Origin: Rhynchopus sp. YZ270_cl-10 | Taxonomy: Eukaryota | NCBI GenBank assembly: GCA_964035575.1 | Contig: OZ037834.1 | Span: 1,240,001-1,304,000 of the forward strand | DNA: 64,000 nucleotides | Direction of reading: 5' to 3' | In this document: positions 1,792 to 61,800 of the stretch, one piece after another | How positions within the stretch are numbered: the stretch's first letter is position 1 | How the letters are laid out: every line of letters starts with the position of its first letter | The notes under the pieces: model-generated | What the model was told of the DNA's origin: nothing | Seen by the model: the letters and a program-made list of their open reading frames with translations, nothing else | The model's database searches: none | Translations under genes and position numbers: made by a program

Positions 1792-1860
1792 GTGAAGTTG
1801 ATAGTGCAAAACGCCCTCTGGGGCGCAGGGCACTGACACTCCGTGGGTTATCGAACCCCG
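1792..1860 (-). mobile_element. 69-nt 5'-truncated copy of the LINE 3' end (family D)
   Basis: Matches 37000-37065 including the last pol codons; A-tracts on both sides. Other copies at ~29961-30033, 44088-44142 and 54905-54960; variants at 53654-53714 and 60620-60668. Confidence 0.88.
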
Positions 1861-2326
1861 AAAAAAAAAAGGGGTTGGTATTAGATGATCACTCAATCCC
1901 TTTCTTGGTCACCTTATTTTCAATATTTTTTTTTTTGAATGAGCGCTTTTTTCTATGTATGATTTGCTTCTCGCATTTTTACCCCCCCCAAAATTGTCAA
2001 AAATGAAAAACTGGGGAGGTCACTGTGGGGGGCACCAAACCAATACAAAAAAAGGGGGGAAAAACAGTAATATGACATGATGTAGTGCAGGGAAAAAAAA
2101 GGTGCTTAAAAAAATGAAGCTTTGCAAAAAAGGGTAAAACGCCATTTGCAGACGAATTAAAACGAGAAAACTTTTCAAAAGGTTATAAGATGTACCCTAA
2201 GACTCTCATACGTATACAGCTTAGGTTGATAGGATGAGCTTAAGATTAGCCATCTAGAGAATGAGATCTCTCTTGTTTTCTTCTGCCAAAAAAAAAAAAA
2301 AAAACAACAAAGCAAATCCGGCACAT

Positions 2327-7858: not shown

Positions 7859-9295
7859 TCACGCCAGGGCCGCGCTGTACGCACACCTCCCTGCCACACA
7901 CTGTGGCACGCGTGCGGGGCAGTCGCATGTGCTGATGAACCTGCTGCTGCCGAAGCACTCCACAAGGACATCCTTCTTCGCGCTGAATGCGGCCATCTCG
8001 GCGTCTGTCGCACGCACACTCGCAAGCAGGTTCCTGGTGCACCCACAGCTCGTTCCCACCAGCGGGCGTGCCGGCTCGCATTCGGCACTCTCCCTGCAGG
8101 TCTGCACGGTGGTGAGGGCGGCTTCGTACTCTGCCTCCGCGGTGCTGCAAACAGAAACAATAGGTGCGGGATGTGTGCCCACAAGGTTGTGCGCACACAT
8201 ACCCGCGTCCGTGCACCTGAAGCCGTCAGAGGCCGGGCAGTCGCAGATGGTGATCAGGGGTCCGTTGCAGGTCTGGTACTGTCCGAGCAGGGTGTTAAAC
8301 GTCGCCAGGTCGGTTGCACTCAGGTCAGCACGTGCCACCTTGTTGCGTGTGCATCCACAGCCGGTTCCGGACAGCACAGTGCCACAGTCGGCTGCTGCCG
8401 AGCAGGTCTGGATTCTCGCCAGGAATGCGGTGTAGTCGGCCGTGATCTCGTCACAGGTCGGCTCCGGCACAGGCACGGGCACAGGCGCAGTCACAAAGTT
8501 GTGTGCACACACACCCGCGTCCGTGCACCTGAAGCCGTCAGAGGCCGGGCAGTCGCAGATGGTGATCAGAGGGCCGTTGCAGGTCTGGTACTGTCCGAGC
8601 AGGGTGTTAAACGTCGCCAGGTCGGTTGCACTCAGGTCAGCACGTGCCACCTTGTTGCGTGTGCATCCACAGCCGGTCCCGGACAGCACAGTGCCACAGT
8701 CGGCTGCTGCCGAGCAGGTCTGGATTCTCGCCAGGAATGCGTTGTAGTCAGTTGTGATCTCGTCACAGGTCGGCTCCGGCACAGGAACGGGCACAGGTGC
8801 AGTCACAAGGTTGAACGAGCAGCGGTTCTCCGAGCACTTGAAGCCAGAGGCAGCCGGGCAGTCGCAGGTCGAGAGGAAGCTGCCACCACAGGCTGAGTAC
8901 TGCGCCTTCAGGGCCTCGAAATCTGCCACCTGCTGTGCGGTCAGGTCAGCACGTGCCACCAGGTTGCGTGTGCACCCACAGCTTGTTCCGGTCAGCACAG
9001 TGCCACACTCGCTCGCAGTGTCGCAGGTCTGGATGGTCGCAAGGTAGCTGGTGAAGTCGGCTTTGATCTCGTCACAGGTGGGTGCGGGCTCAGCACTCCA
9101 GTCGCAGAAGCCCGCTGCAGTGCACGTTGCGACACCACCGCAGAGCTGGACCCCAATGTGCCGCATGCACTTCGCATCGTTGTGGCAGCGCACCGTCGAC
9201 ATCAGGCGCGGCACCAACGACGTGCACAGGTGGCTTGCGCTCGCAACATCCACACACGCTGAGAGCAGCAGCACCGACGCAACTGTGGCACGCAT
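7859..9295 (-). CDS. Secreted cysteine-rich protein with four ~100-aa repeats
   Basis: 478-aa ORF with signal peptide. Repeated core GTxCGCTRN...TxCDCPA; repeats 2 and 3 are almost identical in DNA with a 312-bp period. Confidence 0.85.
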   Translation of the reverse strand: MRATVASVLLLSACVDVASASHLCTSLVPRLMSTVRCHNDAKCMRHIGVQLCGGVATCTAAGFCDWSAEPAPTCDEIKADFTSYLATIQTCDTASECGTVLTGTSCGCTRNLVARADLTAQQVADFEALKAQYSACGGSFLSTCDCPAASGFKCSENRCSFNLVTAPVPVPVPEPTCDEITTDYNAFLARIQTCSAAADCGTVLSGTGCGCTRNKVARADLSATDLATFNTLLGQYQTCNGPLITICDCPASDGFRCTDAGVCAHNFVTAPVPVPVPEPTCDEITADYTAFLARIQTCSAAADCGTVLSGTGCGCTRNKVARADLSATDLATFNTLLGQYQTCNGPLITICDCPASDGFRCTDAGMCAHNLVGTHPAPIVSVCSTAEAEYEAALTTVQTCRESAECEPARPLVGTSCGCTRNLLASVRATDAEMAAFSAKKDVLVECFGSSRFISTCDCPARVPQCVAGRCAYSAALA

Positions 9296-9699
9296 TGTAG
9301 ACTGGGGTGGAGGTATGTGTCTTTACGTTTTCAGATCTGTGGTGTGTAATGTGAGTTGGAAAATGACGATAAGACGGAGACGAAAACCTCGTACTACAAG
9401 CCAAGAAAAACCAAGTGAAATATGGCAATCAGGCGAAATCAATACTTGAGGGGGTTGGGGTGGAAACTACGCCATCCCAACACCCACAACGATCAGGGGC
9501 AAAACACAAAAGACTTAAGGGGGACAATCATGTTCTTTTGTTCAGTTCTCAGGTCCAAAAAATTCTTGTAAAAGAAAGGTTTTTTTTGGCAAGATTAAAC
9601 AATACTACAGCAAATCATTAACATCTAACCGGGGCCGATTCATCATTTTTTTAACCATGGCAACTCTCATCAGAACAACATCGTACACCCCCCCGCCCT

Positions 9700-14082: not shown

Positions 14083-14123
14083 ATGCAAACTTTTTTTCAA
14101 AAAAAAAAAAGGGAAAAGTCACT

Positions 14124-29354: not shown

Positions 29355-30746
29355 AATTGTTGAGTAGTGTAGTTGCCTCGGTTGTGTTGCCACAGTTGCG
29401 CAAATCTCCACTTTCCAAAAGTTTTTTTTCTGCCGTTTTCATGGACACATCTGGACCCCCTCACCTGTTGCAAAAAAAAGATTTGTAAGGTAAAACCTAA
29501 GCTCCTGTTACGTTACCGTTGAAACAAAACAAAAAATCTTGTTTAATTTTAGACTACTATCGTGGGATAGCAGCCAATTTTTCTTCAAAAAAAAGAAGCA
29601 AAAAACAAAACAAAAACAACAATGCTAACATGCAGACACCTCTTTTTGAATGCAGGCACGTGAAGAATAAAGTAAAAACAAAACAAAACAAAAAATAAGG
29701 GGGAGGGAGGGTTGTTACAAAGGCACCTTTCGCGTGGCTTTGTGGTGTTGAAGAAAAGACAACCGTAGGCAGTACACGAGCTTCCAGAAGACACGTCTCA
29801 ACTCGGGCAAGGCTAAACCAGTAAGGGAGGGATTAACGTCTTGCGGGTAGGGATGTGGTCTGGAAAGCGTGTGCACTTTTGTTGTGTCGACAAAATCACC
29901 TGCTAGTGCAGGATCTGTACTCAATGTCGCCCGAAGGCTACTGTTTTTTTAAAAAAGAAAGTGAGGTTGACAGTGCAGCTGCGCTTCTGGGACGCAGGCA
30001 CTGACACTCCGCGGGTTATCGGATCACGGAGTGTTCCACTTTGGAAGAAAAACAAAATGGTAGAATGTGTGATGGAAGTCAAAAAAGAAATGGGCAAAAT
30101 AAAACAAAAACCCCAAAACCAAAACAAAATCGCAAAAAGTATTTCCACAAAAAAAAAAAAAACATCCCCCCTTCCCCCTCCCCCTTTGCCCCCGCTCCGC
30201 CATGAAGGCAGAGACAGCAACAAGGTGCCCTGCGCCTGGTCTGTGTCAGGTCAAAAGCACAACTGCAGCAAAACAAAACACAAAAAAAAAAACAACACGG
30301 ATCTCAAAAGTAAAGAAATACGCACATAACATCACACATACAATGGGCGATGCTTCGCTCTTAGGAACTACCCGCATTTGCTTTCAAATGCACACATCGG
30401 TAGTGGCCAGTCTACAAGCAACCCCCGACTCTTTCGGACATTTTGAGTGCATCTATTATTATATTTTTTTTTGACAAAAAAAAAAACATTTTGTCAAAAA
30501 CTAGATTATATAAAGTGAAGTTCATAATGAACAATTATTTGTATTAAAAATTCATGTGCTTTTGATTCAAGAGAACAGAAAAGCATCTTCACGTAAAACA
30601 ATGCGCTCCGTGGCTACCGGATCTCCACGGGAGAGCGTGCGAAAAAAAAAAAAGAAGTAATAAAACGAGATGTGGGTCACCATTTCCCACCTTCAATTTG
30701 TTCTTTTTTTTTCCTTTTTCTTCTTTTCCTTGAAAACTTTTTTTTT

Positions 30747-34990: not shown

Positions 34991-37052
34991 TTTTTGCTTT
35001 TTTTAGAGAAAATGTTGCATAAAGAGAAGCGAGACTGCGAGAAGGGGTATAGGGGATTGGGGGAAAGCACGGAAAAAAAAATCAAAACTGTGTATGAAGA
35101 GAGAGAGAGATGCCGGTAGGGGGGGGAGAAATGTGTGTGGGTGTGTTTTTTTTTGCTAGGGTGGTGTTGTGGGGGGGTATTCTGGGAGGGGATGAATACA
35201 AAAAAAAGTGTGAAGAGGGCAATGAGAGTCTCAGAGTAAACCTTTCATTCCCCCTAACCATAGTAAAAGTAGAGTTGAAATACAACAGCCCTCTCATGAA
35301 CAGTGTACCTTTGGTATGACTGGCTGTACCGGGAGGTGGACACCCCCAACCATGCAGTCCTACATTCCATTTCGTGGTTTATATCTGAAAGAAGGGAGGG
35401 TGTGAAACACTGCGAAATGAGAAATAAGGGAGGGGCTTTTTTTTTTTTTTTTTTGAGATTTGGAGACAATGGAAGGTACTATGCTCCTTTTTTTTTTTTG
35501 AAAACTTTGACAACGTGTACCCCCACCAACGGGCAATCCACGTGACCCGCCCTCCCTTGTTCACGTTTCGTGGAAACCACTGACAATGGAAGGTATTATG
35601 CTCCTTTTTTTCTGTTTTGGGTTTTGGATTTTTTTTTTTTTTTTTTTGTTTTGTTTGTGTTTGGTACTAAAACCATCCCTTCCCTCCACTACTAAGGGGA
35701 TATAATAAAAAGGGGGGCTTTCCGTCCTCGCTCTTCGTCATGTTAGGCGTGTTGTTTGCATGCATTGGGCGTTTGCGTGCAAAGGAAAAGGATTTTTGTG
35801 ACCACAGAACAGCCCTCACAAATTAAAGAAAATGCTATCAGAACAAAACATAAAGCCCTCTCCCGTGCTCCTAGTCGCCTCGGAACATAATAAATATTGA
35901 TTTGAAATACAAAGCCCTCGAATATTGTACCTTGGTATGACCGGCTGTACCGGGGGGGTGGACACCCCCCAACTATGCAGTCCTACATTCCATTTCGTGG
36001 TTTACATCTGATACAATAAAATACATCTGTTTTTTTTTTTTTCAATTCAGGAGAACAGTAAGTACTTGTGAGGGGGAGAAAAAATAAGGTGTGCAGTTTC
36101 AGTCACATCCCCTGACGGTAAGGAATAGAAGTGTTTCGTATACTTTCAAAGTCAAACAAGAGAAAGTACAAAGAACGTTATATACCCCCTACAAGAAAAA
36201 TAGCAACTCTGATAAGTAAAAGCACGTTGATTGCTCAATTACCCTGTTGGAGGGGGTGGGTGATTTGGCGACCGTATATCAGTGTATATCGGAAGAAACT
36301 ATTTCTCCTTTTAAGCTACACTTTGTAGAAGGAAAAGGCTGAGAGACGGAGCGGGAAAAAAGGGGGGTGGGACAAAAACACACAAAACAAAACCTTTGAA
36401 AAATGCATGATCATCGCTGTGCACACATATCTAGATACAACAAAAAAAAAGAACGACACAAGCACAACGTAACCCGTACCAAACACCCCCCATTTTATTT
36501 TGTTTTGCTAGAAACGTAACAGCAAAGGCTTTTGCAGCTCCAATAATAGAGACCCAATTTCTTTTTTTCTCGCGATTCTTTTTTTTGTATTTTTATATGT
36601 CCCCCGGCACAGCTTCTATCAATTACGGAGAATTTTGTTTTGGAATTAACTCGTTCGTTTTAATCTCTCGCTCCATCTTCGTAACATAACATTCTCAGAA
36701 AAATCGGCAGGAATAGCAGAGTTGCCGTGCACGACAGTCTTTGCACTTTTTTTTTCTTTTTTTTCAAAAAAAAAAGGGGGGTATCAAATATGGGAGGCAA
36801 GCCATTTGTGGTCTGTGGTTTTGTGGGTCAAATTCACCCGTTAAACACATGGTTCTGCACTTTAAAAAAAAATATGTTAGGACGATGAATCTAAGACTAG
36901 TATGTTTTAGTCCACCGTACCAAAAAAAAACCAAAAAAAATTCTGATAGACTACTCTCACTCACGGACTGCTATCACCCCACCTTTCGACCAAAAAAAAG
37001 TGAAGTTGATAGTGCAAACGCCTCTGGGACGCAGGCACTGACACTCCGCGGG

Positions 37053-40000
37053 TTATCGAACCCCGGAGTGATGTGCATGGGTGTGGTTTACAGGGAAGCT
37101 GTAAGCAGGTATACAGTCATTACCCCACCCTGATCGGGAAGGGGGGACAGCATGATTTAAAGATTCAAGAAAAGCACGTGTTTTGGCACACAACACTGGG
37201 CGTCTGCTGAATCCGATGAGCGCCGGGGCGCCGACGGAACGGAGGGAGTGCACACGATCCCTCTTCACACCAGGGAATGGGGCGCGGCGGAGATTCGCTG
37301 TTAAAGCTCGCATGTTAGCCTTGACGATGAGCCTTTGCATGACCCGCCCACGTTCACGGATATTAGAGGTCTGTTTGGCGAGGAAGACCCTTGTGCGCAA
37401 TTCGAAGTCGACCGCGAGCTCGACACACGACACGTCGCGGGGTTCTTTGCTCCACTCGAGCGTAATCACCCACCACAGGAAAGCTTTCAAAGTGAACGCC
37501 TCCCTATAGCTGGAGGAAAAACTAGGCCGTAGCTTGGTCAGGTAAGTGCGGAAGGGGGTATCGCGTTTAGAGGCAGCAAATGTGAGATTCCAAGGATGTA
37601 CAGCCGGGGCCACATCCGTTGGATTTGAGAGGGTCGTGTCGATCGTGGTGACGGCATCGAGGAGAAGAGACTGTACCGCCTTCACCGCCACCTTGTTCAC
37701 ATTGGAGGGCACAATGCCGTGCAGCACAAATCAGGTGGGCAGCCCCTTGCCATAGAGGCTGATGGCCGACGCATGTAAGGCAGTGAACGCCGCTGTGTGG
37801 ACAATGCTGCAGTGCCACAGTAGGTGGCGTGTGTGGCATGTAACCTGGATGAGGCACAAGGGGCATTTATCGCTGAAGTCTGCCTCGGGTAAGCCACTGC
37901 GCTTGAGCCCTGCTGGATGGCAGAAGAGGACTCCGCCACACAGAACACGTCGCATCCGGAAAGCCTTGAGGGGGTCGTGGTACTGTAGGGTGTGCCACAG
38001 GGCATTGGTGGCGCGGGTGTCAATGCCGTCGCTTATGCCGTCGTACGTAGGGCGTTTACTCTGCAGATCATCCCAGACCGCCGTACGCGCCAGAGCTCGC
38101 ACTTCATGGGCCCTCTTGGCTTTGTCTGTCCCGATGATGGGGATAGTCTTCGCGGTTGCAGACGTAGACGTCACTGCCCTCATCTCAGGGTCCCAACTCA
38201 CGTCACATCTGCGGGAGGCGGCGAGGACAGACCCCACTGGACCAACTGCATGCATAGGTGTACCCCGGGTTGCCAGGGTCTCGTACCTCTCTCTGATGCT
38301 CATGCACCTCTGGCGTATGGCGTCATTGCGTTCCACACTGGCGGCGTAAGCTCTGAACGTCCTGCATATTGCACTCGAGAGGGGGTGTGCCACGTGCGCC
38401 TTCAGGCAGAGTGTGAGCAGTGCATCCACTGAACGAGTAAGGTAGGTGGGGCCCCAGCAGCACATCGCCACCGCCGTCGATAATTCATTCATCACTGACT
38501 GAGGGGGCATGTTGAAGGCGGACTCATATAACACTGAAGGGAGGATGGCAGAAGTGGCGATAGACACCTTCTGGGAGAAGGAGAGCTGTGTCGCACCCAA
38601 ACATGAGAGCGCCCTAATGGCTGACTGGTATACCGTAGCGTTGTAGCGCCCCTTGCTCCGTAGGGAGCTGTACATCATCACGCCAAGTGAGCGAAGCGAC
38701 TTAGTTGTCTGGAACACATGATTGTCCTCAGACTTCAGCGTGCATTTGTGGTTCTTCAGCGATGAGAAGGCAAAGGTCTTCGCCATGTTGAGGCGCATGC
38801 CTGTGAGGCGGCAGAAGTCCTCCACTCGCAACAGACACGCCCCCACCGAAGCTTCGCTATGGCGAGACAGAAGGTATGCGTCGTCAGCAAACGACCGTAC
38901 AAACGCCTCAGGTACCTCCGCCGTGATGCAGTGCGTCAGGACCGACATCAAGGCGTTGATGAGCACCACAGAGAGTGGGCACCCCTGCAGGATCCCATTC
39001 GTCACGGAGTACGCCTCTCCTACGCCGGAGGGCAGCTTGAACCGCCGTCTCAACGTGGCGTACATCGCTCGTATAGGTGTCATGATCCTGGGGTGAAGCC
39101 CCATCTTTTCAACAAGATCTAAGGTGAGGCCTTGCGGTACGCGATCGAAGCATTTCGCAAAGTCTAGTGCCAGTCCGTGTAGCGGTTCGCCACCGAGCAG
39201 AGCGTCCTCCATCTGTGTGAAGACGTCATACAGGACATCGTTCGTGCTGTGCTTTGGGCGGAAGCCATGTTGCGACGGGTGTGCCCATTGTTCCTGCCAT
39301 TGTTGAACTGCCTGCAGGCGTGCGCAGGCCCATAACCGGTATACCGCACTGGTCACAGTCACAGGACGTAGCTTCAAGGGGGACTGGTCTTCGCCTTTGG
39401 GAAGGAGCGTCACCAGGGCGGTCAACAAGGCTTGTGGCCACACACCGTTCGTTTCTATCGTGTTGAACACTCGAGCAAAACCTTCCAGTATGCATAGGGG
39501 CATCGCATGAAGTTCCAATGAGCGCCAGCCATCAGTTCCGCAGGCGTCCGTGCGCTTACCTTTCCTGTCGAGCGTTCTACGCAAGTCAGCACCACTTAGT
39601 GGGTCTAGGGACATCGGGGAATTTGCGACGAAGCTGCCGAAACGTTGCTCGAAAGAGGCGAGAGTTGGCTCGGGATGGTCGTGGTCGTATAGGTTGAACA
39701 CTGACTTCCACTCATCACGCAGTAGTTTGTCCATCTCCCTGTGATTGGCCGTAAGCACACCGTCCTCTCCCCGAAGGGCGGAAATAGGAACACCCTGTTT
39801 CCCCATGCACCACGCTGTGAGTTTCCGTCGCTCGCTGCTAAAATCCACCTTCAGCTTGGTGGTGTACTGCTTCTCGCGTTGTAGCCGGGTATTGCGTATC
39901 TCGAGGTTCATAAGCGCCTTGGACTTGTTCAACAGAGAGTTAAGGATCTGTAGCTGCTTTTCGAGCGCGGGTGGGACTGTCGTCTCCTCGGACCTCAGCA

Positions 40001-41495
40001 ACTTGAGCGTGACTGCGGTGCGGAACACTTTACCCCAGGCGTTACGCACAGGATTCTCCATCACCCCACCAGGACAAGATTCTGTCTTCGCAATGAGGTC
40101 CGTGAGCTTATACTCAAATTTGGCAAGTTGGTCCTGTCGGGGGGAAGACCCACCAACAGACGCCGGTCGCGTAGGTGCACACACCGGTTTCAGCACAGGA
40201 TGGGGGATCTTGGAGCGGCCGCAGAACCCTTTGGAGAGCGTGTCACCAGCTGCCTTTGCCGCGAGCAGGAGAAACTCTTCCCCAGCCAGCGCGATCGCTT
40301 CCCACGCATCGTCAATGTCACCGGACGCAAGTGTAGCGGCACAGTTGTGTTGTTGTAGAAGGTTCTTGCCGACTGTCTCAGCATTCGCCACCGTCCCAAG
40401 TTCCGGCATCTGTTTGGGGATGGTATACCGAAGTGTCGACTCTGTAAACACAGAGAGGCAGAGTCGCACGTTGACGGACTTGTGGCTGGGGATGCAGTTG
40501 ATACGATGTGTCCAACAGCTATGGACGGCATGTGCAGCGACGCTGTTCAGCAAGATGTAATCGATACGGGTCCCTGCTGAGTCTTTGCGGGTGAACGTGG
40601 CAGGGGGCTTGCCGTCATCCCCAGTGCTGCCCAGGAGCGCGACGTCGCACCAGTCCTTGGCGAGTGCTTTCCGCAATGTTGGTGATCTTTCCACATCAGT
40701 GTTGAGGTCGCCGCACACAATCAACGGAACGTTACCCAGGGTTTCTCGAAACTTCACAAGCACTGTGTGGAGGAGTTCTTCGCGTGCAGCAACTGTAGCT
40801 CTTGGCGTGTCACCTGACGGGGCGTACACATTCACCACATGCAGGAACAGACGGCCGGAACCAAGCGCTACGCGCGTGTGCACCACACGTTTCCTCAGCT
40901 CGGGCTTCAGAGAAGACGTCAGTTCGGTGTCCAGGAACATGATGCCCGGTCTCTTCAGCATGGTGGCCACTCCCCCACGTTCCCCAATGTGTGGACTGCG
41001 GAGGCCATGGACGAGTGTGCCATCCATGGGGGGGCCCCATTCTGGAGACCAGACTGTGGTGAAGAAGTCGTTCATCTCCAAGATCTTGGACTCGGTCAAC
41101 TTTGTCTCTTGTAGACACACTATATCGCACTTCAGGTCGCGTATGATATGTGCGTAGTTCTGTAGGGATGTGCAGTTGATGGTGGTTAGCGTGAGGGTGT
41201 TCTCAGCAGCGGAGCAGCACGTACGCGAGGAGGAGGATCTATCCGTTGAAGAGGAAGAAGAAGAAGCAGAGGTAGAAGAAGATGTGTCTGAGAGTGACGG
41301 GGGGAAAACGGGGCGAGGAGAAAACGATGCCAAGGATGATGATGATGATGATGATGATGAGGAGGAGGAGGAGGAGGTACGGTTTGGGAAGTGGCGGGGA
41401 CCAGGGCGCGTTTCGATGCACTCGCGAGGAAGCTGCTCGTAGTTGTAGGCGGCGAGTGATTCCGGAAAACGCTTCGTGCTGTTGGTGTGGGGGAG
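37053..41495 (-). CDS. LINE pol region: APE endonuclease + reverse transcriptase + C-terminal domain (one internal TGA at 37731-37733)
   Basis: APE motifs TINC, CLQETK, GDLN, RIDY. RT motifs LRPV, QHGFR, LDFAKCFDRV, GILQGCPLS, FADD. CPLC...HLLWHC. The same frame continues past the TGA as FVLHGIVP to the TAA at 37053. Confidence 0.9.
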
Positions 41496-43127
41496 TCAGT
41501 CGCGCTTAGGTGACGAGGCCGCCCCGGTGAATTGAGGGCGGGAGTAGTCGTGGGATTTACCGTCCTGCGCATTCGGGATGTGGATGGCTCCCTTGAACTG
41601 CCTCATCTTGCGTGTGGGCCGGTCCTCCGGGACCGTCTCGCGAATGAGCAGGGGTTCGTGATAGTCCCCTCGCGCTATCTTCGTGAACTGGGGTCGTTCC
41701 TGTGCGCACACGATGATCACATGCTGGCGTTTCTTTTTGTATGAGGAGACACACTTGCAGTCGAATCCCGAAGCCTGGAGGGTTTTGACGATGTCCTCCC
41801 TCAGCTCGTACTGGCGCGCTCCGAGGACGGTGTACTTCATCGCCCGAGGGTCCATCAACGGCGTCACATTGTTCACCCCAATGTCGTTGACCGCCTCCGC
41901 TGTCGCGTAGTTGTTGGTGAGGCGGATGCCGAGGCCCCCCCCGCTGCCGATCACCAGTCCCAAGGTGGTTTCCTCATGGGAGTTGCAGAACTCCCACGCG
42001 TGGTCCATTGTGAGGGCCCGGTCAAGCCACACCACTGCGTAGAGGTCCGGCTGATACGGTACGTGGGACACGGCTGTCATGAACAGCCCCTCATGGCCGG
42101 AGAGACGTAACAGTGGTGCCAGGCGTTCGTTCTTAACCCTCAGCTGGATCGACAGCTGGTAGTCGTTGGTCCTCACCTTCCAGACGTCCCTAGGCCCCGG
42201 GGAGAAGCCCGCTTGTTTGCAGCGGGTGGTGACGAGTGAGCCGAGCTCAGCAGTCGGATTCGCCACTGCTCGCGTCCACACATCCGCGTGCACTACGTGG
42301 GCCTTCGACAGGATGAGTGCTACGATCGTTGTAGACGTCTGGTTGTTCACACTGGTCTCGCGGCATACCTCTGGGGCCCATGTCCAGGTGGGGGTGCGGC
42401 ACACGAAGAACTGCCTGCGGGTGTAGCCGGTTTCGGCGTCGGCTTTTCCCTGTACAAGGGTCGTCACAGCGTCGGCGCAGAACTTCGTCTCGCAGAGGAC
42501 GGCGCACGCAATGCTCTCCTTGCGGTCGCAGCGCCTCTTCACGCGTTCCCACGCCTCTTGCGCGCTCTTCTTGTTGGTGGCGAGGAAGGTCCCCGCTGGC
42601 TGCACGTCCAGCTCTGCCGCATCAGACACGATGGCGGCGCCGAACTGTTTCGGCTGGACCATCCACAGAGGGGCGGGGGTGGCGAACGGCCCCTTGCGGC
42701 GTCTGACCACGTCGGTCCACGTCCCGTTCTGCAAGTGCACGGTGCCTTTGTGCTGCTTGCTGGTGTCGCTGTTGTTGCGGTAGTTGTTGTTGTTGTTGTT
42801 ACTGTTGTTGTTGTTGTTGTTGCGGTGGTTATTGTTGTCGTTGTTGTTACTGCCGTTGTTGTGTTTGGCACTGTTGTTGCTGTTGTTGTTGCTGTTGGTG
42901 TTGCGGTTGATGTTGTTCGCGCTGTGTTTCATTGCATTGGTGGTGGTGGTGGTGGTAGCGGCGGCGCCCTCCCTCGTCACAGGCACCTCCGTCTTCGTCG
43001 TCGTACCCCGGGCCCCAATCATGTCCAACATGATATCTAGGATTTGCAGAATCCTGTCCCGGTCTTCGTCCGTCCTTGCGCTCTTACTGAAGCGCCTCGC
43101 CTTCTCGAGCATAGCTTCATAAGACAT
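41496..43127 (-). CDS. LINE ORF1-like protein (543 aa, Asn-rich low-complexity segment)
   Basis: ATG at 43127 (MSYEAMLEK) downstream of a C-rich CAG; directly upstream of, and in frame with, the pol region. Confidence 0.75.
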   Translation of the reverse strand: MSYEAMLEKARRFSKSARTDEDRDRILQILDIMLDMIGARGTTTKTEVPVTREGAAATTTTTTNAMKHSANNINRNTNSNNNSNNSAKHNNGSNNNDNNNHRNNNNNNSNNNNNNYRNNSDTSKQHKGTVHLQNGTWTDVVRRRKGPFATPAPLWMVQPKQFGAAIVSDAAELDVQPAGTFLATNKKSAQEAWERVKRRCDRKESIACAVLCETKFCADAVTTLVQGKADAETGYTRRQFFVCRTPTWTWAPEVCRETSVNNQTSTTIVALILSKAHVVHADVWTRAVANPTAELGSLVTTRCKQAGFSPGPRDVWKVRTNDYQLSIQLRVKNERLAPLLRLSGHEGLFMTAVSHVPYQPDLYAVVWLDRALTMDHAWEFCNSHEETTLGLVIGSGGGLGIRLTNNYATAEAVNDIGVNNVTPLMDPRAMKYTVLGARQYELREDIVKTLQASGFDCKCVSSYKKKRQHVIIVCAQERPQFTKIARGDYHEPLLIRETVPEDRPTRKMRQFKGAIHIPNAQDGKSHDYSRPQFTGAASSPKRD

Positions 43128-43236
43128 ATGATGATTGATTTTTTTTTTTGTTTTGATTGATCTGTGAGGGGGGGGGAGGGGGGGGGAGACCCCACGGCCG
43201 ACACGCCCGAGCGGAACAGCAAGCGTATTTGACGAC

Positions 43237-43275
43237 CAATGAAGTACAGAAACTGTAGCTTTAGAAATCGTTGGT
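43237..43275 (-). other. Genomic copy of a diplonemid-type spliced-leader exon
   Basis: Minus strand reads ACCAACGATTTCTAAAGCTACAGTTTCTGTACTTCATTG, close to the Diplonema SL as I recall it (AACCAACGATTTAAAAGCTACAGTTTCTGTACTTTATTG). A partial duplicate CCAACGATT precedes it. Confidence 0.9.
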
Positions 43276-45569
43276 AATCGTTGGAAAAAAAAGAAAAGAA
43301 AAAAGGCTGACAAGATGAATCCAAGTCTCTCAGCTTTGCCACCTTTGTCACCTTAAGAAACACAGAAAAAAGTTTGTAATGTTTAGTCACTAAACAACAC
43401 ATCATCTTTCGGCTAATTGACCCGAAAAAAAAAAAAAAAAGCTCCACTTCACTATCGACAATACACAACACTGCAACATTCAGACGCAGATAACGGGTTC
43501 TGCTTCGGGATGCCAAAATACAGTCAGAGAAGAAGAATAAAAAGTTGAAAAAAGGAATGTGCCTTGATGTACACACATTTTTAATAGACGCAGAATTTCT
43601 TTTTGATACAACAGTTCAAGGAGAGCGAAGATAAAAAAGACTAATTTCATTACTTTCCGTTCAAAGAAGAGAAAGCAGAGAAAAAAAAAAAAAAACGGTA
43701 AAGATGGAAAACCCGACTCACCTAAAAAAACTGTAGCGAGCAAAAAAAAAAAAAAAAAAGAAAAAAAGAAAATTGTAAGATGCATGTGCCTCTCATGCAC
43801 ACACACATCTAATAATCGCAATAAGCCTAGAACAAAGTCTACCCCATTGTACTTCCCCCCGTTTTTGAGTTTTTTTTTTGGGGGGGGGACATTCTGAGGG
43901 GTTCCTTTCCAATTATTTAAAATAGTTGGGGCTAAAGGGTGGATTTGTTTGCCACTATCACGTACATTTTTTTTTACGTCCTCCATCATGCACTGATTTA
44001 AAAAAAACGATTTGAAAGCGAGACTGATGGAAAGATAACGACACATACTTTTGGAATATGGTGGAAGGACACACAAAAAAAAAAAAGGTGAAGTTGATAT
44101 GTGCAAAAACGCCCTCTAGGATGGACACTGACGCTCCGTGGGAAAATAGCAAACTGTCTCCACCCCCCTGAGGGCTGTACTTAGTGAGTTGGTTGCAGGT
44201 GGATGTAAAAAAAAGTGTCACTTGTCGTTCCCTCACCCCCCTTCTTGTAGTTGTTTGATGCGTTGACGCTTCCACACACACTAAAAATCACCTGTTGGGT
44301 GGTGGTGTTGCGGAGCACGGTTGGGTGAGTGAACGACGTGACACTTTCCGCTCACAAAGTAGTGTGCGTAAAAAAAAAAAAAAAAAAATGGACAAACAAA
44401 CAAACAAAACTTGCAAGATGAATATAGCCTCTCATGCACACACATCTTTCACAAAATGGTAGTTGTTGCTGCAGGCACACCTCCGACTGACCTACGTACG
44501 ATGCCCAGCCATCCGGATGAAAGCACAAAGAAAAAAAAGCAGGGTTTTGGGAAATGAAATTTATCAAAAAAACTGGGTCTGTGTTTTCTTTCATTATTTT
44601 TTTTTTTTAGGGTACTCTCACTTTTTCTTTTGTTTCTTGTCCCCGCCCGCTCGGATTTTTCAGGGAGGGAAAAAAAAAAAAGTGGGCAAAAAAAAAAAGT
44701 GTACAGGGTTTCCACCAAGGTGGACCGGGGTGGGACCATGCCCACCCCATTATTTTTTCCAGAAAAATCCGGATTTTCACAGGGTTCGGGGGGTATATGG
44801 TGACCCCCGAGAAAAATGGGGTTTGAAGGTTGTAGATGACCCCCCGTGGTCATGCGACCAGAGCATTTGGCACGTTGTAGCCGGGCAAGTAGTGGAGTTC
44901 ATCCTCGGGTGTCTACACTAATACAACCAAGTTTTCAAAAAAGAAAAAAGTAGTGTACCGTGCGCCTGCGGCGCTGTGTTGCTGACTACTGCAACATCCC
45001 CGCAAGGTAGAGAACTGCACGCTCCAATCTGAGCCCCACGGTGGAGAGCAATCAAAAGAAAATGGCACGAGTAAAAAAAGTTGGTAACGTGAGCCTGCGG
45101 CGCTGCCCCCCCTTTACCTTACACTGACGGGTTTTGACCAAAACCAAAAACTTGTCCATTTTGGCAAATTGGCCCCACCACACAACGGACGGATTCCGGA
45201 AATGCAAATGCCGGTGTTTTCGGGCACTTTCGTGTTTTCAGACGTCAGGATCAGGGAGAGAAAATCTGGATTTGGTCAAGGACAAGAAACAAAAGAAAAA
45301 GTGTGAGTACCCTTACCTACATTCTAGGACAGTTCATGTCGAAGAGGGGGGAGGGGATATTCATTTCTTTTTCTTTCGTCGAAAAACCAAAGCAAAGAGA
45401 AGCGGTACATCTCTTGCTTGGCGTTCTAAAGGGGTGAGTCAGATGCCAAATTCCTTTCTTTTCCCTTTTGTTTCATTTTTTTAGTTCGCCACATTCCTCG
45501 CAAAAAAAAAAATTTAAAAAAAAAACAAAGAACAGCCATTTTTTTTAAATTTTTGCAAGAACAAAAAAA

Positions 45570-51334: not shown

Positions 51335-54300
51335 TTTCTTTTGTGAAAGTTTTGCGGGAAGAGAGGGGGAAGGGGGAAGGAGGGAAGGGGAAGGGGGGTT
51401 TGAGTAAACCCGCAAAGATCTGAAGGGTGCGAAAAAAGGGTGGTGGTGGTGAGGGATTTGATGCATCAAAAAGTGAATTTGCCGTGAATAGAGAAGCTCT
51501 GGGGGTTGTGGAGGTACAGAACAAAAAAAGTTGGCTTGAAATACAACACAGCCCTCGGTGAGAAGGAGTACGGTGCCACGAGGCAATCCAGGGTGGTTTT
51601 GGAGTCTCATCAAGAGGGCGAATGTATTTTTTTTTTGTTTCGGTAGTAAAACAAAGTGAAGTCATGCAGGCACACCTCCGACTAACCCACAGTACGATGC
51701 CATCTGGATGAAAGCACAAAAACTACCCTGCGGCCAACAGAAGAAGAATAAAGATTAAGATATCATTTTCAATCGAAAAGATGGAGTTTTATCAACAGAA
51801 GAAGAAGAAGAAGAAGAAGAAGAAATAACAAAATGGGGGTGTCCTTGCATTTGAGTTTAAGATTCTTGGATTTTTTTTTTAGGAGGTTTTTTTTTTCTTC
51901 TTTTTTTTTTTTTTTTTGCCTTGGGGAAGAGCACAAAGGGGGGGGAAAAGAAAAGACTATAACAACAGTTGGAAAGGTTGAAGAAAAGAAAAGAAAAAAC
52001 AAAAAAACCAAAACGGAAAACTTTTTTTTGAAATGAATGGATGCGGTCTTGATACTAGACTTGACACATCTGAACGACGATGATATAAAAGCGAAGAAAT
52101 AAAACTGTAGCGCACCACCAAAAAGGGTTTTTTGAAAGATGAATTCTGCCTCATCTACACCATCCTTCAAAAAATTTGACAAATCTTGATTTTTAAGACT
52201 CACGAAAATAGCATCCAAAACTTCAAAAAAAAAAAAGGGGGGGAAACGTGGACACGATGGCCAGTTTGATGTGGGAGAGCGTCAAAAAAAAAAAAGTGGA
52301 CGAAAATACTGGTTGAGAATTACTCTCCAAAAAAACGTCAAAATTTTTTATGCCCTCCCGCTCAAACTGGCCACCGTGGAGGGGGGGGCGGAGAAGGGGG
52401 AATGAAGAAAGGTTTTATAGGAATCTATCTAAGCCTCTCATGCTTAGCCAACCTGATCACGAATCGTTGTCGAACGAACTAGCAATGGTAATCAATGGAA
52501 AATGCTCATCCTATACGAGGGGAAAAGACGGTGGGGAAATCGAAGGGGTGTCGGAACACCCGTGTAGTGGGGGAATTGACAAAAAATCGTCAAGAGAAAA
52601 GGAAAAAGAAAAAAGAAAAAAAAAAAAAAAAAACTAAATTTCATATACTTTCTTCAAAGAAAGAGAAAGCACACAAAGAAGAAAAGAGAAAAAGTTTATA
52701 AGATGAACCTAAGCCTCGTGCTCAGTCATCCTGGGAAGAAAAAAAAAATTAGATTCATGTACTTTCCATTAGAGAAATAGAAAAGCAGTTGAGAAAGAAA
52801 ATACCATACTTAAAAGATGAATCTAAGCCTATCACGCTATAGTCACCCAAAAGAAGAAAATAAAAAAAAAAATCTGAAAGTGCGAGCATCTCTGCAGACA
52901 CAGGCACTGCTGAAAAAAAAAATAAGGGAATGGTTATTAATGCAGACACCCCAACTGACCCACGTACGATGTCGGCCATGGATGAAAGCATAAGTACCCT
53001 CAAAAAAAAAGGGGGGGTAGAACGACAAAATGCTCGTGGACCCACCTTCAAAAGAGAGAGAGAAAAGTTTAACAATCCCAAGCAAAAGGCGATCTGTAGG
53101 GTAGAGAACTAATACCGTATTCGTAAAAGAATTATCGATCGTAACAAAGGCTGAACTACCAGAAAAATCTTGAAAAAGGTCGCACATTTATACGATTGAT
53201 ATAATTTTTGTACGAATACTGTAAAAATAACAAAATAACAAAATAACAAAATGCAATTTAAATACCAACTCATTCTTGACCTTTTGGGTAACCAGGCGAC
53301 GCCGGCCAAAAGTAACAACCCAGAATGAGAGCAGTTTACCCCCCTTTTTTTTTCAAAAAATAAACAAATAAGGAAATTCATCCCTTTCCTCTCATCACGC
53401 TTATGCTTTTCCCGGTCTGTACTGAACGGGAAATATGCTTGTATACCAAGCGCATGCTGAGACATACGGTGGAAAGGGTTTAGTCTCCTTAACACGAAGC
53501 GCACACAGAAACAAGAACCATACGTAGAGAAAGAAATAAAAAGAAAAAGAGAGAGAGAAAGAGAGAGAGAGAGTGTGTGTGTGTTCTCTATAAAAGCGAA
53601 GGGTACAAATGTTTTGTCACGTTTTGCAAAAAATGAAAAATAAAAAATAGAGAGAAGTTGAAAGTGCAAGCGCCTCACCGTATATCGGCGGACGCAGGGC
53701 ACTGGTTCTCTGGGTAAAAAAACAAAACAAAACAAAACGAGACGTGCTTTCAAAAAAAAAAAAAAAAAAAAAAAACATTTTTTTTTTGCTAATACCAATG
53801 CACACCATGGATTCATCAGGACAATACGAGCGTTATGACGTCGTAATTACGAGGGGGGTGCCCGCGTCATGACGACGTATTGCGATAATTTCCCCACGTT
53901 TTTTCCTTCGTCGCTCGTCACGTAATGTCCTTACGAGTCCATGGTGCAAACACCCCGAGGGGTGGTGCACTAATACTATTTAAAAAAAATGCGCTTTTAT
54001 GAGATGTTGTGATTGATTTTTTTTTTTTTTTTTTTTTCTCTCCTCCTCTTTGCTTTTTTTTTTTTTGAGATCGCGTTCTATACCATATCAGAAAAGGGTA
54101 ATATTACACAGGGAAAAAGAAGAAGAAGAAGAAGAAGAGGAAAAAAAGGGTTGTAAGATGAATGTGCCTCTCGTGCATACACACATCTACAAAAAAAAAA
54201 AACAACCGCAACAGCAGTTGAGAGTATTGCCTTGGATGTGTCAAGAATCAGATTTAAAAAAAAAAGAAGAAAAAGAAAACGACTTCAGGATATGACAATT

Positions 54301-55039
54301 TAACGAAAAAGAAAAAAAAAACACTTTTTTTTTTTCGGTTATCGCACCGCAAAAGGCTTTGTGCATTTTTTTCACTGCAGAATAATGTGTGAGGTATGCG
54401 TCAGTGAAGAAAAAACCCAATCCTCTTAGACGGGCACGCACCATCCGTCGTTTTCCATTTCTATTTCGGCAATGTTAGATAAACCCCCCCCAAAAAAAAA
54501 ATTTGTGTTGTCAACCGCTCAAAGCATAGGGAGGGGAGGGAGCAAAGCGAAAGCCTTGTTCCTAGTCAGAGTGCTCTGCGGAGTGAAGGTGTTTTGTTTT
54601 TTTTTTTTTGTTTTTGTTGTGTCGACAATCGCCGAGTAAACCCACCAGGTGGGAGAATTCGGGTCTGTACTATTTTTTTTTTTACATTTTATTTTGCAGT
54701 GTCCCCCTCCCCCCCCATCCAAGAGACGTTGATTTTTTTTTTTTTTGTGCAAAACCCTTCATCGGATCAACAAAACAAAGTGAAGTTGATAACGTACAGA
54801 GACACCTCTGGAACCTCATCCCACCTTTATAACAAGCTGCAAAAAACCTGGAAAAGGCTCCGTTCAAAAAAAAAATTCGCAATAGAAAAGAAGAAAAAGA
54901 AGAAGTGAAGTAGATACTGCAAGACGCCTGTAGGGGGACGCAAGCACACCAACATTCTGTAGAGGTTCTCGAAACCCCCCAGAGTGCTGCGAGAGCTGTA
55001 CTATCCCCCCCACCAGAGCGCTGTATTACAGATTTGCTT

Positions 55040-55077
<38 letters not shown>

Positions 55078-56500
55078 GAAAGCAGGCACAGTCATTTCCC
55101 CCAATCCGCTTGGGAAGGGGTGATTACATGTTTTTTTAAAAGACTCAAGAGAAAGAAAAAAACAAGAGAAAGCTTATTAAGACGAACTTAAGCATCACTG
55201 TGCATAAGCCATCTAAAAAGACCTCACCCAAATCTCCTCTGGGTCTTAGGGAAGAAATGGGGAGAAAAATCAGGAAAGAACAGTTTTAGGTGTGGAACCT
55301 AAAAACTTTGCGGGGTTGGTCGCCTTAAGAGGAGGGGGGTTTTTTGTGAGGGGTGAGTTGACTGAAATACAATACCCTGTGCCCATATCCTATAATAGGA
55401 TCTAGGCAGACGAACTGAGCTAGCTCAACGTCTTCTTGTGTAGACAACCCCACTCACCGTGTCGCAATAAAGTTCGCAGTAACTTCCAACAAAATAAAAA
55501 TTAAAAAACAAAAAACAAAAACCATACACAAAATAAAAAAAAAGTTTATAAGATGAACCAAGCCTAACATGCTTAGCCACCTTTAAAAAGAAGAGAAAAC
55601 TCCAAAGGGGGGAAACGTGCTTCCTCGGCACAAAAAAAAAACATTGCTTTTTATGGGAATCTTTTGGTTTAGCATTTCGTACAGTTTGTCTTTTTAGAAA
55701 GAAAAAAACTGTACGAACTGGCCGCTTTGGCTTGCGTCTGTAAGGACTGCCTTGAGTAGATACTTTCTGTATTAGCGCACGATTGATCGCCTTTTTAGAA
55801 GGCACGCAACTTACTGTATCGACACTCTGCCTAAGTACCTACCCCCCAGATGGGGGTAGCTATTCATAGACAAAGCGCGATAGGTCTTTTGTGCCGTACG
55901 GAAGGTATAGACGTAGGTTTTCGTCCTGAGCTTCTTCGAGAAGCTTAAGAAAAAAAAATTTTTAATTGTTTGGTTCTATCAGATGTCATGTGAAACACAC
56001 ATCATCATGAATGTGTTTCACTGTACCATACACGCAAAAAAAAAAAGGTGGACCAAAAAAAAAAAAAAAAAAATCACCTAGATGGTGCTCCGGGAGGGGT
56101 CGATATTGACAGGCCGCTGACACAGGGACTCTATACACACACCCCCTGATATTGACAGGTCGCCGACAGGTCACTGACAAAGGTCGTTGACCGACTTCCG
56201 AAAGCACCACTAGAGGGGAAAAAAAAAAGTGGTGCAGTCCATATCTTACAGTGTACGATAACTATTTTATTTTGGTCGTTTGAATGCTCCACTCTGCTAC
56301 GGGTGGACGCATTAGTGAAAGGTGTGGAGGTGTAAATATAAAGGTGGTATTTGACGGTGGGGCTAAGAGAGAAAAAATCACTCAACGAAAAAAGTGCACA
56401 GAGATAGAAAACCTGTACCATGAGCTACGCCTTTTACATCTCGAGGTGCACAATACGTCTCTTAAAAAAGACGCACGTCAAAAAAAAAAAGGAAAAAAAA

Positions 56501-57627: not shown

Positions 57628-58826
57628 GTTAAATAAAGTATACGAAAGGATTTGGCACTTTTAGTGGACTCATTGCGATAACTGACGATGTGAATTTTTG
57701 GTGGTGGTAAGTGAGTGTTCGAAAGTTAAAAAGGGGGTGGTGGTGTGTGTCTTTTTCTTGATCAAGTAAGAAACAAACAACAAGAACAACACACAAGGTT
57801 GGAACTGGATGAAAGTAAAGTTGAATGGTAAGCAGGTAAAGGTATATAATGTCAGAGCGATTATGCGGGAAGAAGAACAAGGAAGCCAATATGCTGAGCC
57901 GTCTGCAGCGATGCAGTTCATGCAACAAATGAAAGAAACGAGTTAATCAGGTGTGAGCCGCACGTCGTGCTCAGACACCTAGCAAAATACTGACAACTTG
58001 GCTGTGTGAGCAAGGCTACATCACGCCAAGGTCGTCAAGGGGGCGCAAAAAAAATTTTTTCTTTTGCACCCAAAAACATTTATAAAAGTGGAGGGGGGGG
58101 TGCAAAAATATTCTTGCACCCCACTCCAAAAGAAAAAATCTGGAGGGGAAAGAGGGCCCCGAGGGGCCTGTTGGGCCGTACCCAAAAAAACAAAAACAAA
58201 AACAAAAAAAAATAGAATTCTTTCGGAATTCATTGTAATCTTTTTTGCAAATTCCCTGCAGAGCTTTTTCATTCACCGTTTACCACATAAACCAAAGTGA
58301 GCAACTATGCCTTGACTGGGGTCTGCTCCTCTGGTATTGATGTTGGTTCGGACGGCGGCACCTCCCCACACACAGCGTGTAAGGGAGCAAGGATGTTTTC
58401 ATCCGCGGCGTCACAGTAACGCATGGCCATTTGCGTACTGGCCCAGCCTGAGTGCAGCTGCATCTGAACTGCGCTCAGATCGCTCGCAAACATTTTTAAA
58501 ATCTGTCTGTGAAAAAAAGTGGGAGTTCTTGTGAAGTTCTGTTCCAATCCGAGTTTGACAGTGTTTTTGCCTTCCAACGCGGATGTGAGTAAGATCATCA
58601 TTTTTGTACCCTCTGTGATTCGTGTGTCATGTGCAACTTTTTCGCGCGCAGCGCAAAAAAAAAAAAAATCCCACCCAAAAAGCTCAGACCGGGTCAGACC
58701 GGGGTCTTTTTTGAAAAGACCCAAATCGATCTCCATCTCTGGTGTCAAAAAAATAAAACAAAAACATAAAAATAGGGAAAGCGTTACTGACTAAAAGTGC
58801 CAAATCCTTCGTATACTTTATTTAAC
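57628..58826. mobile_element. 1.2-kb element with 37-bp TIRs and a possible tyrosine-recombinase relic
   Basis: TIR GTTAAATAAAGTATACGAA(A)GGATTTGGCACTTTTAGT; internal minus-strand HR-x20-W-x8-Y (LHSGWASTQMAMRY). Confidence 0.6.
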
Positions 58827-61800
58827 TTTGGAATATTTAAAAAACACTCTGTCCCAGTACTATTGTTTTTTTCTTTAGATTTTGTTCTCAACTGCAAAAA
58901 ACATTTCACTTCAAGAGTAGTTGATCTTCAAAAAAAAAAAAAAAAAAAAAATGCTGCGATAGATTCACAGAACAGCTCCTGAGCCATAGAAAAGCAGAAG
59001 AAGACCCCCATGAGATTCAGTCAAAGCAAAGATGCATTTTTTTTCTTTTTCTTTTTTTTTGATAAATTGTTTGAGCAGTGCAATTGCCTCAGGTTGCCAC
59101 AGTTGTTGCAACGAACAAAAATGAACAAAAATATATCTGGGTAGAGGGCTAAGAGGAGGGGGGCTTTATTTATTTTTTTTAAATCAAGTAGAAATTTAAA
59201 TCTGTTATCAATCAGGCACTATGTCATCAAAAACGCAAAAAGAAGGGTAAAAAAAAAAGAAAAATAGTTTCGGCCCCTGCCTCGAGACTATAAAATACCA
59301 CGGGGGCCTTCTCAATAGGCCGTAGGTAAAAGCAAAAAAAGGAAAAGTAAAAATGATGACGTAAGTTGGTGTCTCAAAGTGTCTCTTAACTGGAAGATCA
59401 TCCAGTGGCGAACGCACCATGCCTGTTATGTTTCTTTCATTTTTGTATAGCGGGTACTATTTGAGGTACTGGTTTGCAGCAGGAGGGGGGATACCTGACT
59501 ACTTTGTCGGTCGAATTCGAGAGAGACATAGTAGTTTACGGTAACTTCTTTGTAGTCTGTACGCCGAAGTGTTAACAAGAGAAGCCAAGGAGGAAAAATA
59601 TGAAGAAAAAACAAAAAAAGCAAAAAAAAAAAAAAAAAAAACAACAACAAAAAAAAAAAAACGAAGTACAAATACAAAACAAAGCAGGTTCAAGAAAGGG
59701 GTTTTTGGGTTGGGTGCTGTGCTCGCCTCTCTCTCTCTCTCTCTCACACTTCTCCCATAAAATACGGAGAAAAATTGTCGCCGGAAAACATTTGAGTTTT
59801 GTTGTTGGTTTTGTTTTCTTACAGGGAGAGAAAAAAGAGCGAAAGAAAAAGGGAGTCACTATCACAAGAAAGAAAAAAAAGGCAGCTTTTTTTTGTCTGC
59901 AAAAAGAATTTATTTAGAAACAAGAAAGGTTGTAAAATGAATATGCCTCACGTGCATACACATCCCCCATTCCCATAAAAAAAAGCATCGTCTTTTGCAC
60001 CAAACGTTACTGTAGGCCATGAGACAGTAGTATCATGTTTTGTGTGCCACGCGTTAGGTGTGTTGATGGTTTCTTTTTCCTTTTCTGATAATTTGTTGGA
60101 TTAGTGCACCAGATAGACAGTCTTCAAGGCACTTCCAACTAAATATCATATTAAGGAAAAGTTGTGGGATGAGCCCAAGCGTGACTGTGCTTGGTTTACC
60201 AGGAAAGAACGTATATGTTTCATTACCGGGTTTCTATTACCCCGGTTGGGTAATGAAAAAAAAGCTAAAACCCCGGTAATTCCCGGTACCCGGTAATGGG
60301 TGCCCGTCCATGATAAATAAATAGTTTTTTTTTTTTACAGAATTGCCAAATCCGCTTGCCCAATAAATATCGCCCACACCACAATCGGAGGGGGGGTGAA
60401 CCTAAAATACACGACAGACTAGTCAGGTTGGACTACCAGTTGAACTACTAGTCGTAACGACTAGTGGTGAACTAGTAGTGTTACTGGTGAAAACACTAGT
60501 TATTTGGCCTAGTAGAAACTGCTAGTCGTCCCCTTGATTAGCCAGCCGTGTCTGATCTGTGAACCACAAACCACAGGGGTTTTCGCAATCAAAAAAAAAA
60601 AATCAGAAAGTAAAGAGAGAAGCTAATGCAAACGCCTCACCGTTCATCGGCGGACGCAGGGCACTGTCAAAAAAAAAAAAAAAAAAAAAAAAGAAAGGGA
60701 AACAAATCATGTATTTAATGAGGCTTGGGTTGGCGGGGGTAAATGACGGTTAATTTTTGTTCGATTTTTAGACTACTAAAATACGGGATAGCAGCCACTA
60801 ATCAGAATTTTTTTTCTTCTTCGGTTCAGGGTAGTCATGGGGTATAGACCAATCGACTACCCTATTATTCCGGTTCGCATTTTGCTCTCTTGTTTATTTT
60901 TGTTGTGTATCATATCAGCATTCAAAAAAAAATGAGCATATTTTTTTTTGAGTGAAACACACAAATAACGAGGTCTGGGTTTGGGTGAAGTTAAAAAGCG
61001 ATCGTGTGTTTTCACAAACGGATGGGAACCTGAAGGGAAAGGGAAAAAAGAAAAGAAAAAAAGAATCTGAACAGAGGACTTAAGGTGGTCCGTCCCCCCC
61101 ACTAAGGGGTACACGCACACAAATTTCAAAAAAATTAATAGAAATGTTGATAGATCAGTGAAGGTGTTTTTTGTCACATAAATCCCAAATCTGCTGTGCT
61201 TAGTCACACCTCCGAGAAAGACACGCCTGGTGTGGCTGAAGGGGGGTGATTCGCACTTCTTGTGCACTTTTTTCACACCCCCATTCAGTCATCCAACGGA
61301 AGGGCAATTTTTTCGGCATACAAAAAGAAAGGTATATAAGACCCTAAGCCTCTGGTAGCTTAGCTTAGCCACCTTGCTGCAAAAATTTAAAAAAAAGGAA
61401 AAACGGTGTGAGGAATATCCTGGGGTTTCTGACATCAATGTAAAACGTTAAAAAAACACACAAAATTTGACGGCACGTGGAGAGATCACATACGTTAATA
61501 TGATACACACAGGGGTGAGCTATCAATCTATTTCGTTAAGAACGTTTATAGGATGAACCTAAGCCTCTCGCTGCTTAGTCAACCAGAAAGAAGAAATAAA
61601 GCCTTTTTTTGACGAAAAAATAGGCAGTTTCTTTTGGTGAGATGAACCTAAGCATATATTAGGTCACCTTCAGTTAAGATGAACAGACGAAGAGCTTCGA
61701 GGATTACCATACATTGTGGCAGCGTCCACGAAAAGGCCCCCTTAAAGCATCCGTGATTATTGGTATTTCAATAAGCATGGATGTTAGCTTTAGGGCGTCT

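Follow-up and report, generated by a model that had tools for sequence, protein, structure and literature searches.

What are the short hairpin-bearing repeats that recur along one strand of this DNA, and how are they related to the LINE that lies among them? In the window, by which we mean the whole 64-kb stretch analysed, a preliminary description had singled out six isolated LINE 3′ termini, here called family D, and attributed them either to extreme 5′ truncation or to independent mobilisation of hairpin-sized RNAs. The reading we favour, with a probability of about 0.58, is that family D consists of 40-70-nt terminal-hairpin copies of an endonuclease- and RT-encoding LINE, likely generated by TPRT that stops at an upstream hairpin (H1) and probably re-copied from polycistronic RNA. 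Direct support exists for four parts of this reading, namely that the copies descend from the LINE end, that T-runs flank them, that they are co-oriented with host genes and that they greatly outnumber LINE bodies.

The parent LINE and its two ends

The LINE from which the short copies are judged to descend has the following features.

37000..43275, minus strand: full-length APE-RT LINE, parent type of family D; the same 5′ end occurs at two other loci
43237..43275, minus strand: 39-nt spliced-leader exon with which the LINE begins; in front of it, a 9-nt repeat of the exon's first letters and a T-run
41496..43127, minus strand: ORF1, 543 aa, no Pfam match, in a cluster of 6 members
37053..41495, minus strand: ORF2, with endonuclease (PF03372), RT (PF00078) and a C-terminal Cys/His motif; broken here by a TGA
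37042..37070, minus strand: H1, upstream hairpin (predicted fold) that extends over the final codons of ORF2 and its TAA stop
37000..37039, minus strand: core common to all D copies, comprising the terminal hairpin H2 (37011-37039) and an 11-nt spacer
36992..36999, minus strand: T8 run behind the LINE 3′ end

The nearest named relatives of this LINE are Diplonema proteins, with 30-37% identity across most of the length; together with the euglenozoan spliced-leader sequence of the LINE, they give the window a diplonemid look. The LINE's protein cluster (P0001) has 37 members; a second LINE family (cluster P0003, 44 members), found on contigs of matching sizes, probably comes from the same genome, in which at least three variants of the ORF2 C-terminus occur. 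ORF2 ends in VR-stop or MR-stop in three LINE families that are 42-53% alike. No RNase H match was obtained in the window's LINE copy, a profile search yielded no additional LINE family, and viral contigs held no relatives. Metagenome contigs gave no match with P0001 and 10 distant loci with the alignment as query. One of the eight loci examined (L005) extends past the ORF2 stop, and its 3′ end has no significant fold (z −0.93 and −1.52). The TGA at 37731-37733 breaks ORF2 only in the window's copy. Selenocysteine insertion or read-through at this codon was ruled out by the Cys found there in sister copies and by contig depth, since at position 37731 in run X3 the other letter accounts for 3424 of a depth of 3522, leaving the stop about one copy's worth.

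The last 76 nt of the LINE are predicted to fold as H1 and H2, followed by 11 unpaired bases and the T8 run (z −4.26; 0/200 shuffles as stable). The lower stem of H2 shows no covariation, with no pair varying on both sides. Loose ends that run into an A-run at 36992 (212, 159 and 151 contigs in runs X1, X2 and X3) are the dominant 3′ loose end. In a sister copy (P0065), which reads through the 3′ end, the T stretch that follows is short, and a long T-run is therefore not obligatory.

At its 5′ end the LINE begins with a block of 39 nt, the usual length of a spliced leader. This block (43237-43275), present once within the 64 kb, matches 16 of the 17 letters of the spliced-leader motif printed in PMC7859406. 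The same block joined to the same 5′UTR was seen in both ORF1 members that read in from upstream (2/6 members; P0088 and P0093, on other contigs), each with its own F-run before it. The three full-length copies seen thus begin exactly with a single leader, without tandem relics. In run X6, one contig diverges at the end of the block and its new letters begin like a splice donor, as would be expected of a leader RNA gene. Judged from these junctions, the full-length copies most likely arose as cDNA from trans-spliced RNA, so the LINE would seem to rely on host read-through. A repeat at 43239 and 36993 also raised the idea that the LINE had inserted into leader sequence and duplicated 7 nt; we rejected it because the same leader junction is present at two other loci with other flanks.

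Short copies of the LINE 3′ end

The last 76 nt of the LINE (37000-37075, minus strand) were used as a query for local scoring, with 40 block-wise dinucleotide shuffles of the window as the reference (maximum 40, mean 32.9). The loci discussed below are these.

1792..1860, minus strand: D copy with its 5′ start inside H1 (LINE 37065); T10 before, T11 after
29961..30033, minus strand: D copy with its 5′ start at the foot of H1 (LINE 37070)
44088..44142, minus strand: diverged D copy with its 5′ start in the 3′ arm of H1 (LINE 37052)
52868..52912, minus strand: D-like copy, H2 only, with the same fold; score 36, not above shuffles
53647..53704, minus strand: D′ copy with an extended upper stem and its own 3′ spacer
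54905..55155, minus strand: old 5′-truncated LINE fragment with about 175 nt of LINE sequence and an internal T-run
60613..60669, minus strand: D′ copy with a long T-run before it

The copies at 1792-1860 and 29961-30033 score 112 and 105 and are young, with about 90% identity or more to the LINE end; as described earlier, they carry the hairpin together with the last ORF2 codons and the stop. Scores of 71 (54905-54989) and 64 (44088-44142) also place both copies that had been called diverged above the shuffles. Neither folds better than shuffled sequence (z −1.0 and +0.69 respectively), and the first is more than a hairpin: its similarity continues as far as about 55155, which corresponds to LINE position about 37174, with a score of 70 where 1083 other windows reach at most 31, and we therefore take it to be an old LINE fragment of about 175 nt. 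The weaker copies at 53654-53715 and 60624-60669 score 47 and 36. Significance against shuffles thus holds directly for five of the six copies named; the one at 60620 (36 against a maximum of 40) is secured only through its score of 79 against the copy at 53654, in a scan whose top 12 windows are all D loci. The additional CCG..CGG noted in these two is confirmed and lengthens the upper stem by 5 bp in the predicted fold. The two copies, here D′, have in common a loop insertion and a 3′ spacer that the window's LINE lacks, and could equally be the tail of the second LINE family (P0003 cluster). The locus at 52868..52912 is probably a further D copy; a weaker look-alike at 54780-54825 (score 37) matches only in its 3′ 30 nt. 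A covariance model built from eight copies recovered only those eight (at least 46 bits; next 16.5).

The short copies begin at LINE positions 37070, 37065, 37052, about 37043 (twice) and about 37040, so that six of the seven D copies end 41-71 nt from the LINE 3′ end, staggered across H1 and the foot of H2. They contain no LINE 5′ sequence. The D copies match, in nested fashion, the very 3′ terminus of a LINE that encodes an RT, with variable 5′ ends and a fixed 3′ end, and this comparison of sequences supports descent of family D from the LINE terminus. The direct link that had been drawn between the LINE and the tiny repeats of the window accordingly stands, by sequence, for family D only; the other families share the architecture alone. 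All six named copies are on the minus strand, as stated. The A-rich tracts said to adjoin them are present, but they are A on the plus strand only and are T-runs on the element's own strand. These T-runs directly follow the 3′ end and usually also precede the 5′ end, and target-site duplications are not separable from them; no empty site was seen.

Orientation, flanks and copy number

Profiles of 11 small hairpin families were compared with the window (E ≤0.05, seeds included), giving 68 copies, 67 of them on the gene strand. Every D copy is oriented like the host genes, and the bias is shared by T-tailed (51/51 sense) and A-tailed families (14/15). The host genes that match Pfam (PqiA, F420 oxidoreductase, Plus-3, a protein kinase with a PH domain, and SAP) are without exception on the minus strand, and three long plus-strand frames that were tested gave no match above the curated cut-off. 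For T-runs, the share of long runs on the coding strand is only 221/372, so the supply of targets does not explain the sense bias (P 3e-12 for T-tailed and 3e-5 for A-tailed families), and one mechanistic step, or selection, must still be accounted for. Such a bias could arise if integration favours the template strand, or if antisense copies are purged. In Diplonema, genes form one-way clusters that are probably co-transcribed and trans-spliced, and RNAi genes are present in D. papillatum, according to the accessible part of PMC10161547.

The 5′ flanks of T-tailed families are T-rich (0.48 T against a background of 0.32; 30 copies with D left out; 0/5000 draws), and those of A-tailed families are A-rich (0.50 against 0.26; 9 copies). 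LINE proteins point the same way: among the members listed, of which 29 were aligned, six of the seven with unaligned N-terminal residues enter from a stretch rich in F, L and V, and therefore from a T-rich 5′ flank. Family A has sharp 5′ ends, unlike family D, with 20/23 copies starting at profile positions 2-9, the hairpin foot. Its T-run loose ends at 28348-28356 are among the best supported in three runs. Within the window it has no longer form, and its covariation does not exceed that of shuffles (203/500 as high). Hairpins nested in each other's tails are visible but not enriched (9/67 gaps are no longer than 60 nt, where random placement averages 11.4). For hairpin families other than D, no LINE partner was found when the C-terminal 60 aa of 87 proteins were compared with the window.

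Contig depth rises steeply toward the LINE terminus. In run X3, single-copy DNA has a depth of about 100, ORF1 374-584, mid-ORF2 3177 (one contig), position 37731 3522, 37356 5579, 37049 777197 and 37015 1603313, where depth is summed over overlapping contigs and overstates copy number, most of all at diverged repeats. The ratio of depth at 37015 to that at 37356, which compares the hairpin with sequence about 340 nt upstream, is 287 in X3, 31 in X1 and 25 in X2, counting matches of at least 82% identity and thus leaving older LINE bodies below 82% uncounted. In each of the three runs, depth drops by about half from 37015 to 37049; the runs may come from the same source or strain as the window and do not count as independent evidence. 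Over 1-1.5 kb, the LINE body declines only from about 35 to about 32 copies. With so slow a decay, fall-off at a constant rate would leave tens of hairpins; the 64-kb window alone has six to eight short copies, and steady truncation cannot explain the numbers. To reach the excess, synthesis must halt near H1, short copies must be re-copied, or copies must build up over a long time, or all of these must hold.

Origin of the short copies and known elements

In the scheme that we consider best, the LINE would be transcribed together with a cluster of host genes, and trans-splicing would supply the 5′ end of its RNA; the ground for this is that the spliced leader stands at the very start of three full-length copies. 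The ORF2 protein would bind H2 and nick the A-rich template strand of a T-run; priming would use the U-run that follows the stem after 11 nt, which inverts the customary pairing of an A-tail with a T-primer. Synthesis would often halt 41-71 nt in, at H1. Sense copies could then be transcribed for free within host polycistronic RNA, and a cDNA reaching the U-run before the hairpin could pair with the T-run of a new target, yielding a unit of the same length without promoter or head; these last two steps are the least certain. The D′ pair and the excess of depth point toward such repeated copying from masters of their own, and the independent mobilisation of hairpin-sized RNAs proposed earlier is plausible. 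We put forward more tentatively, as something possible though doubtful, that the window contains a headless, promoterless class of 40-70-nt retroelements: bare RT-recognition hairpins riding polycistronic RNA, using U-run/A-run pairing with an APE-type LINE and regenerating their length through flanking T-runs.

Other histories can be set against this scheme. The short copies might all be dead-on-arrival truncations of full-length RNA from several LINE subfamilies, formed over a long time without re-copying and accumulating since longer copies were deleted or decayed beyond recognition. The 5′ ends staggered within H1, the old 175-nt fragment, the several ORF2 C-terminal variants alongside a second LINE family, and the lack of covariation all fit such a history, and to that extent the extreme 5′ truncation invoked in the preliminary description is sustained; truncation at a steady rate misfits the hairpin excess. 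Two young copies (1792 and 29961) in 64 kb against about 32 LINE bodies genome-wide, and a family A with uniform ends and no longer form in the window, argue against truncation as the whole story, which we regard as unlikely, if the most serious of the competing accounts.

Retention by the host appears less probable still. Former LINE tails would in that case be kept in untranslated regions as RNA signals for stability, 3′-end processing or translation, with selection explaining both strand and shape. The almost complete sense orientation of T-tailed and A-tailed families alike would be expected, the copy at 1792 lies about 470 nt downstream of a gene's stop codon, and Leishmania SIDERs are sense and located in 3′UTRs (available text of PMC2689281). 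The folds of several D copies have decayed, however, as at 44088 and 54905, and no pair-preserving signal rises above shuffles; moreover, the portion of PMC5814959 at hand reports sense bias for intact L1Tc as well, and purging of antisense copies alone could suffice. The reverse order of events, capture of a separate small element (MITE-like or a small-RNA gene) by the LINE at its end, is very improbable. As capture would suggest, the window has many hairpin families for which no LINE partner is visible, but H1 overlaps the last codons and stop of ORF2, whose VR-stop or MR-stop ending recurs across the three LINE families compared above; the copies are nested 3′ fragments of the LINE, and they have no terminal inverted repeats, tRNA similarity or Rfam match.

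Comparison with known elements places family D, as a copying product of the LINE, close to several groups. Its 3′ end derives from a partner LINE, as in SINEs, and resembles the tail of a stringent-type SINE: in the accessible parts of PMC3747384 and PMC5786205, stringent-type LINE/SINE tails likewise have a 3′ stem-loop shortly before the tail, common to the LINE and many short repeats. These SINEs, as presented there, differ in having a tRNA, 5S or 7SL head and a body, whereas family D is the tail alone, 40-70 nt. It is not a SINE by definition, because it has no head and no Pol III boxes: the window contains no tRNA genes and no Rfam matches, and the B box is absent in 7/7 loci, with one lone A-box-like match (consensus from general knowledge). 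Truncated LINE copies are given in the same sources as 100-1,000 bp; family D is shorter.

EhLINE1/EhSINE1 of Entamoeba resemble family D in their T-rich 3′ tail and in a T-rich stretch upstream of the insertion, and the T-rich tail is modelled as pairing with an A-rich bottom (primer) strand (PMC1635306, available text). By analogy, pairing of the T-tail with an A-rich primer may be the simplest mechanism here. The EhLINE1 endonuclease is restriction-like, whereas that of the window's LINE is APE-type, and neither polycistronic co-orientation nor a spliced leader is among the features described in that part of PMC1635306. The trypanosomatid sets L1Tc/NARTc, ingi/RIME and SIDERs are alike in combining a euglenozoan host, an APE-RT LINE with short derivatives and a strong sense bias in polycistronic clusters (accessible parts of PMC5814959 and PMC2689281). 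As described there, these elements share a 5′ 77-79-nt promoter/ribozyme hallmark and have a poly(A) tail; family D lacks this combination and instead shares a 3′ hairpin and has a T tail. L1Tc has its own promoter and ribozyme and an unspliced RNA (PMC5814959, same portion), whereas full-length copies of the window's LINE start with a spliced leader.

The literature consulted contained neither headless LINE-tail hairpins in diplonemids nor a LINE with a spliced leader, and the Diplonema repeat supplement (PMC10161547) may describe such repeats. What we did not find there is the combination of headless 40-70-nt units, T polarity with an APE enzyme, a leader-capped LINE and near-total sense bias, ingredients that each have precedent. 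The system bears on the minimum size of a non-autonomous retroelement where the host transcribes everything and trans-splices 5′ ends, so that promoter and head are dispensable. It also provides an APE-type LINE whose priming seems to take place on U-runs at A-rich strands, and thousands of natural variants of a 40-nt recognition hairpin as a resource for studying the RT's choice of RNA. If the headless class is real, insertions from a dozen T-tailed and A-tailed families would be spread through untranslated regions at roughly one per kilobase of this genome, all sense. An origin of this kind may apply to some diplonemid dispersed repeats described without obvious origin (PMC10161547, accessible part). 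As with SIDERs, such copies could supply material for post-transcriptional control.

Dinoflagellate retrogenes with relict spliced leaders are reportedly genomic copies of trans-spliced RNA that keep the leader. That case concerns host genes; here the LINE itself carries one leader, with no tandem relics in the three copies seen.

Family A and the A-tailed hairpins

The commonest hairpin family of the window, family A, has 23 copies (12302-12352 and 22 other places), with uniform 5′ ends and with T-runs at either side. A search for a partner LINE of this family found none, and of all the families it is the strongest candidate to be a separate unit that propagates itself. Four further hairpin families are A-tailed and are set in A-rich flanks; they comprise the following, with their relatives.

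662-726, A-tailed hairpin
22890-22952, A-tailed hairpin
47320-47380, A-tailed hairpin
60077-60121, A-tailed hairpin

Fourteen of these 15 hairpins lie in sense orientation, on the same strand as the host genes, and the A-tailed copy at 44890-44946 is the sole antisense hairpin of the window. At 54780-54825, the 3′ 30 nt match family D, the short copies of the LINE 3′ terminus, and the 5′ arm resembles family A; this hairpin is possibly a chimera or a member of another family.

Ends and copy depth of the LINE

At its 5′ end the LINE carries an entire spliced-leader exon, and in this copy a 9-nt repeat of the start of the leader stands before it (43237-43284 in all); two further copies likewise carry a T-run followed by the spliced leader at their 5′ end. 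Near the start of ORF2 (41227-41250), contig depth, which overstates copy number at diverse repeats, falls from about 32 copies to about 6; many copies stop there or have another 5′ part. ORF2 terminates in VR-stop or MR-stop (37053-37061) in three LINE families just 42-53% alike (this one, P0002 and P0003), and also in the distant locus L005, perhaps because these codons belong to the RNA hairpin.

Longer repeats and other features

Three two-copy repeat pairs, of 125-185 nt, are longer than the tiny hairpins.

35259-35388 and 35886-36011, ending in the family E hairpin
26253-26380 and 49020-49147
30748-30931 and 46698-46883

The first pair may represent longer truncations of a different LINE.

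A predicted secreted protein of 487 aa, built of Cys-rich repeats (7859-9322, minus strand), had no match in a Pfam search. Nested inverted repeats with 7-bp tandem arrays (14124-14309 with 16221-16406) occupy 13136-16406; this structure differs from the hairpin families and is possibly of DNA-transposon origin. The window has a further 7-bp array, related to these, at 26859-27691.
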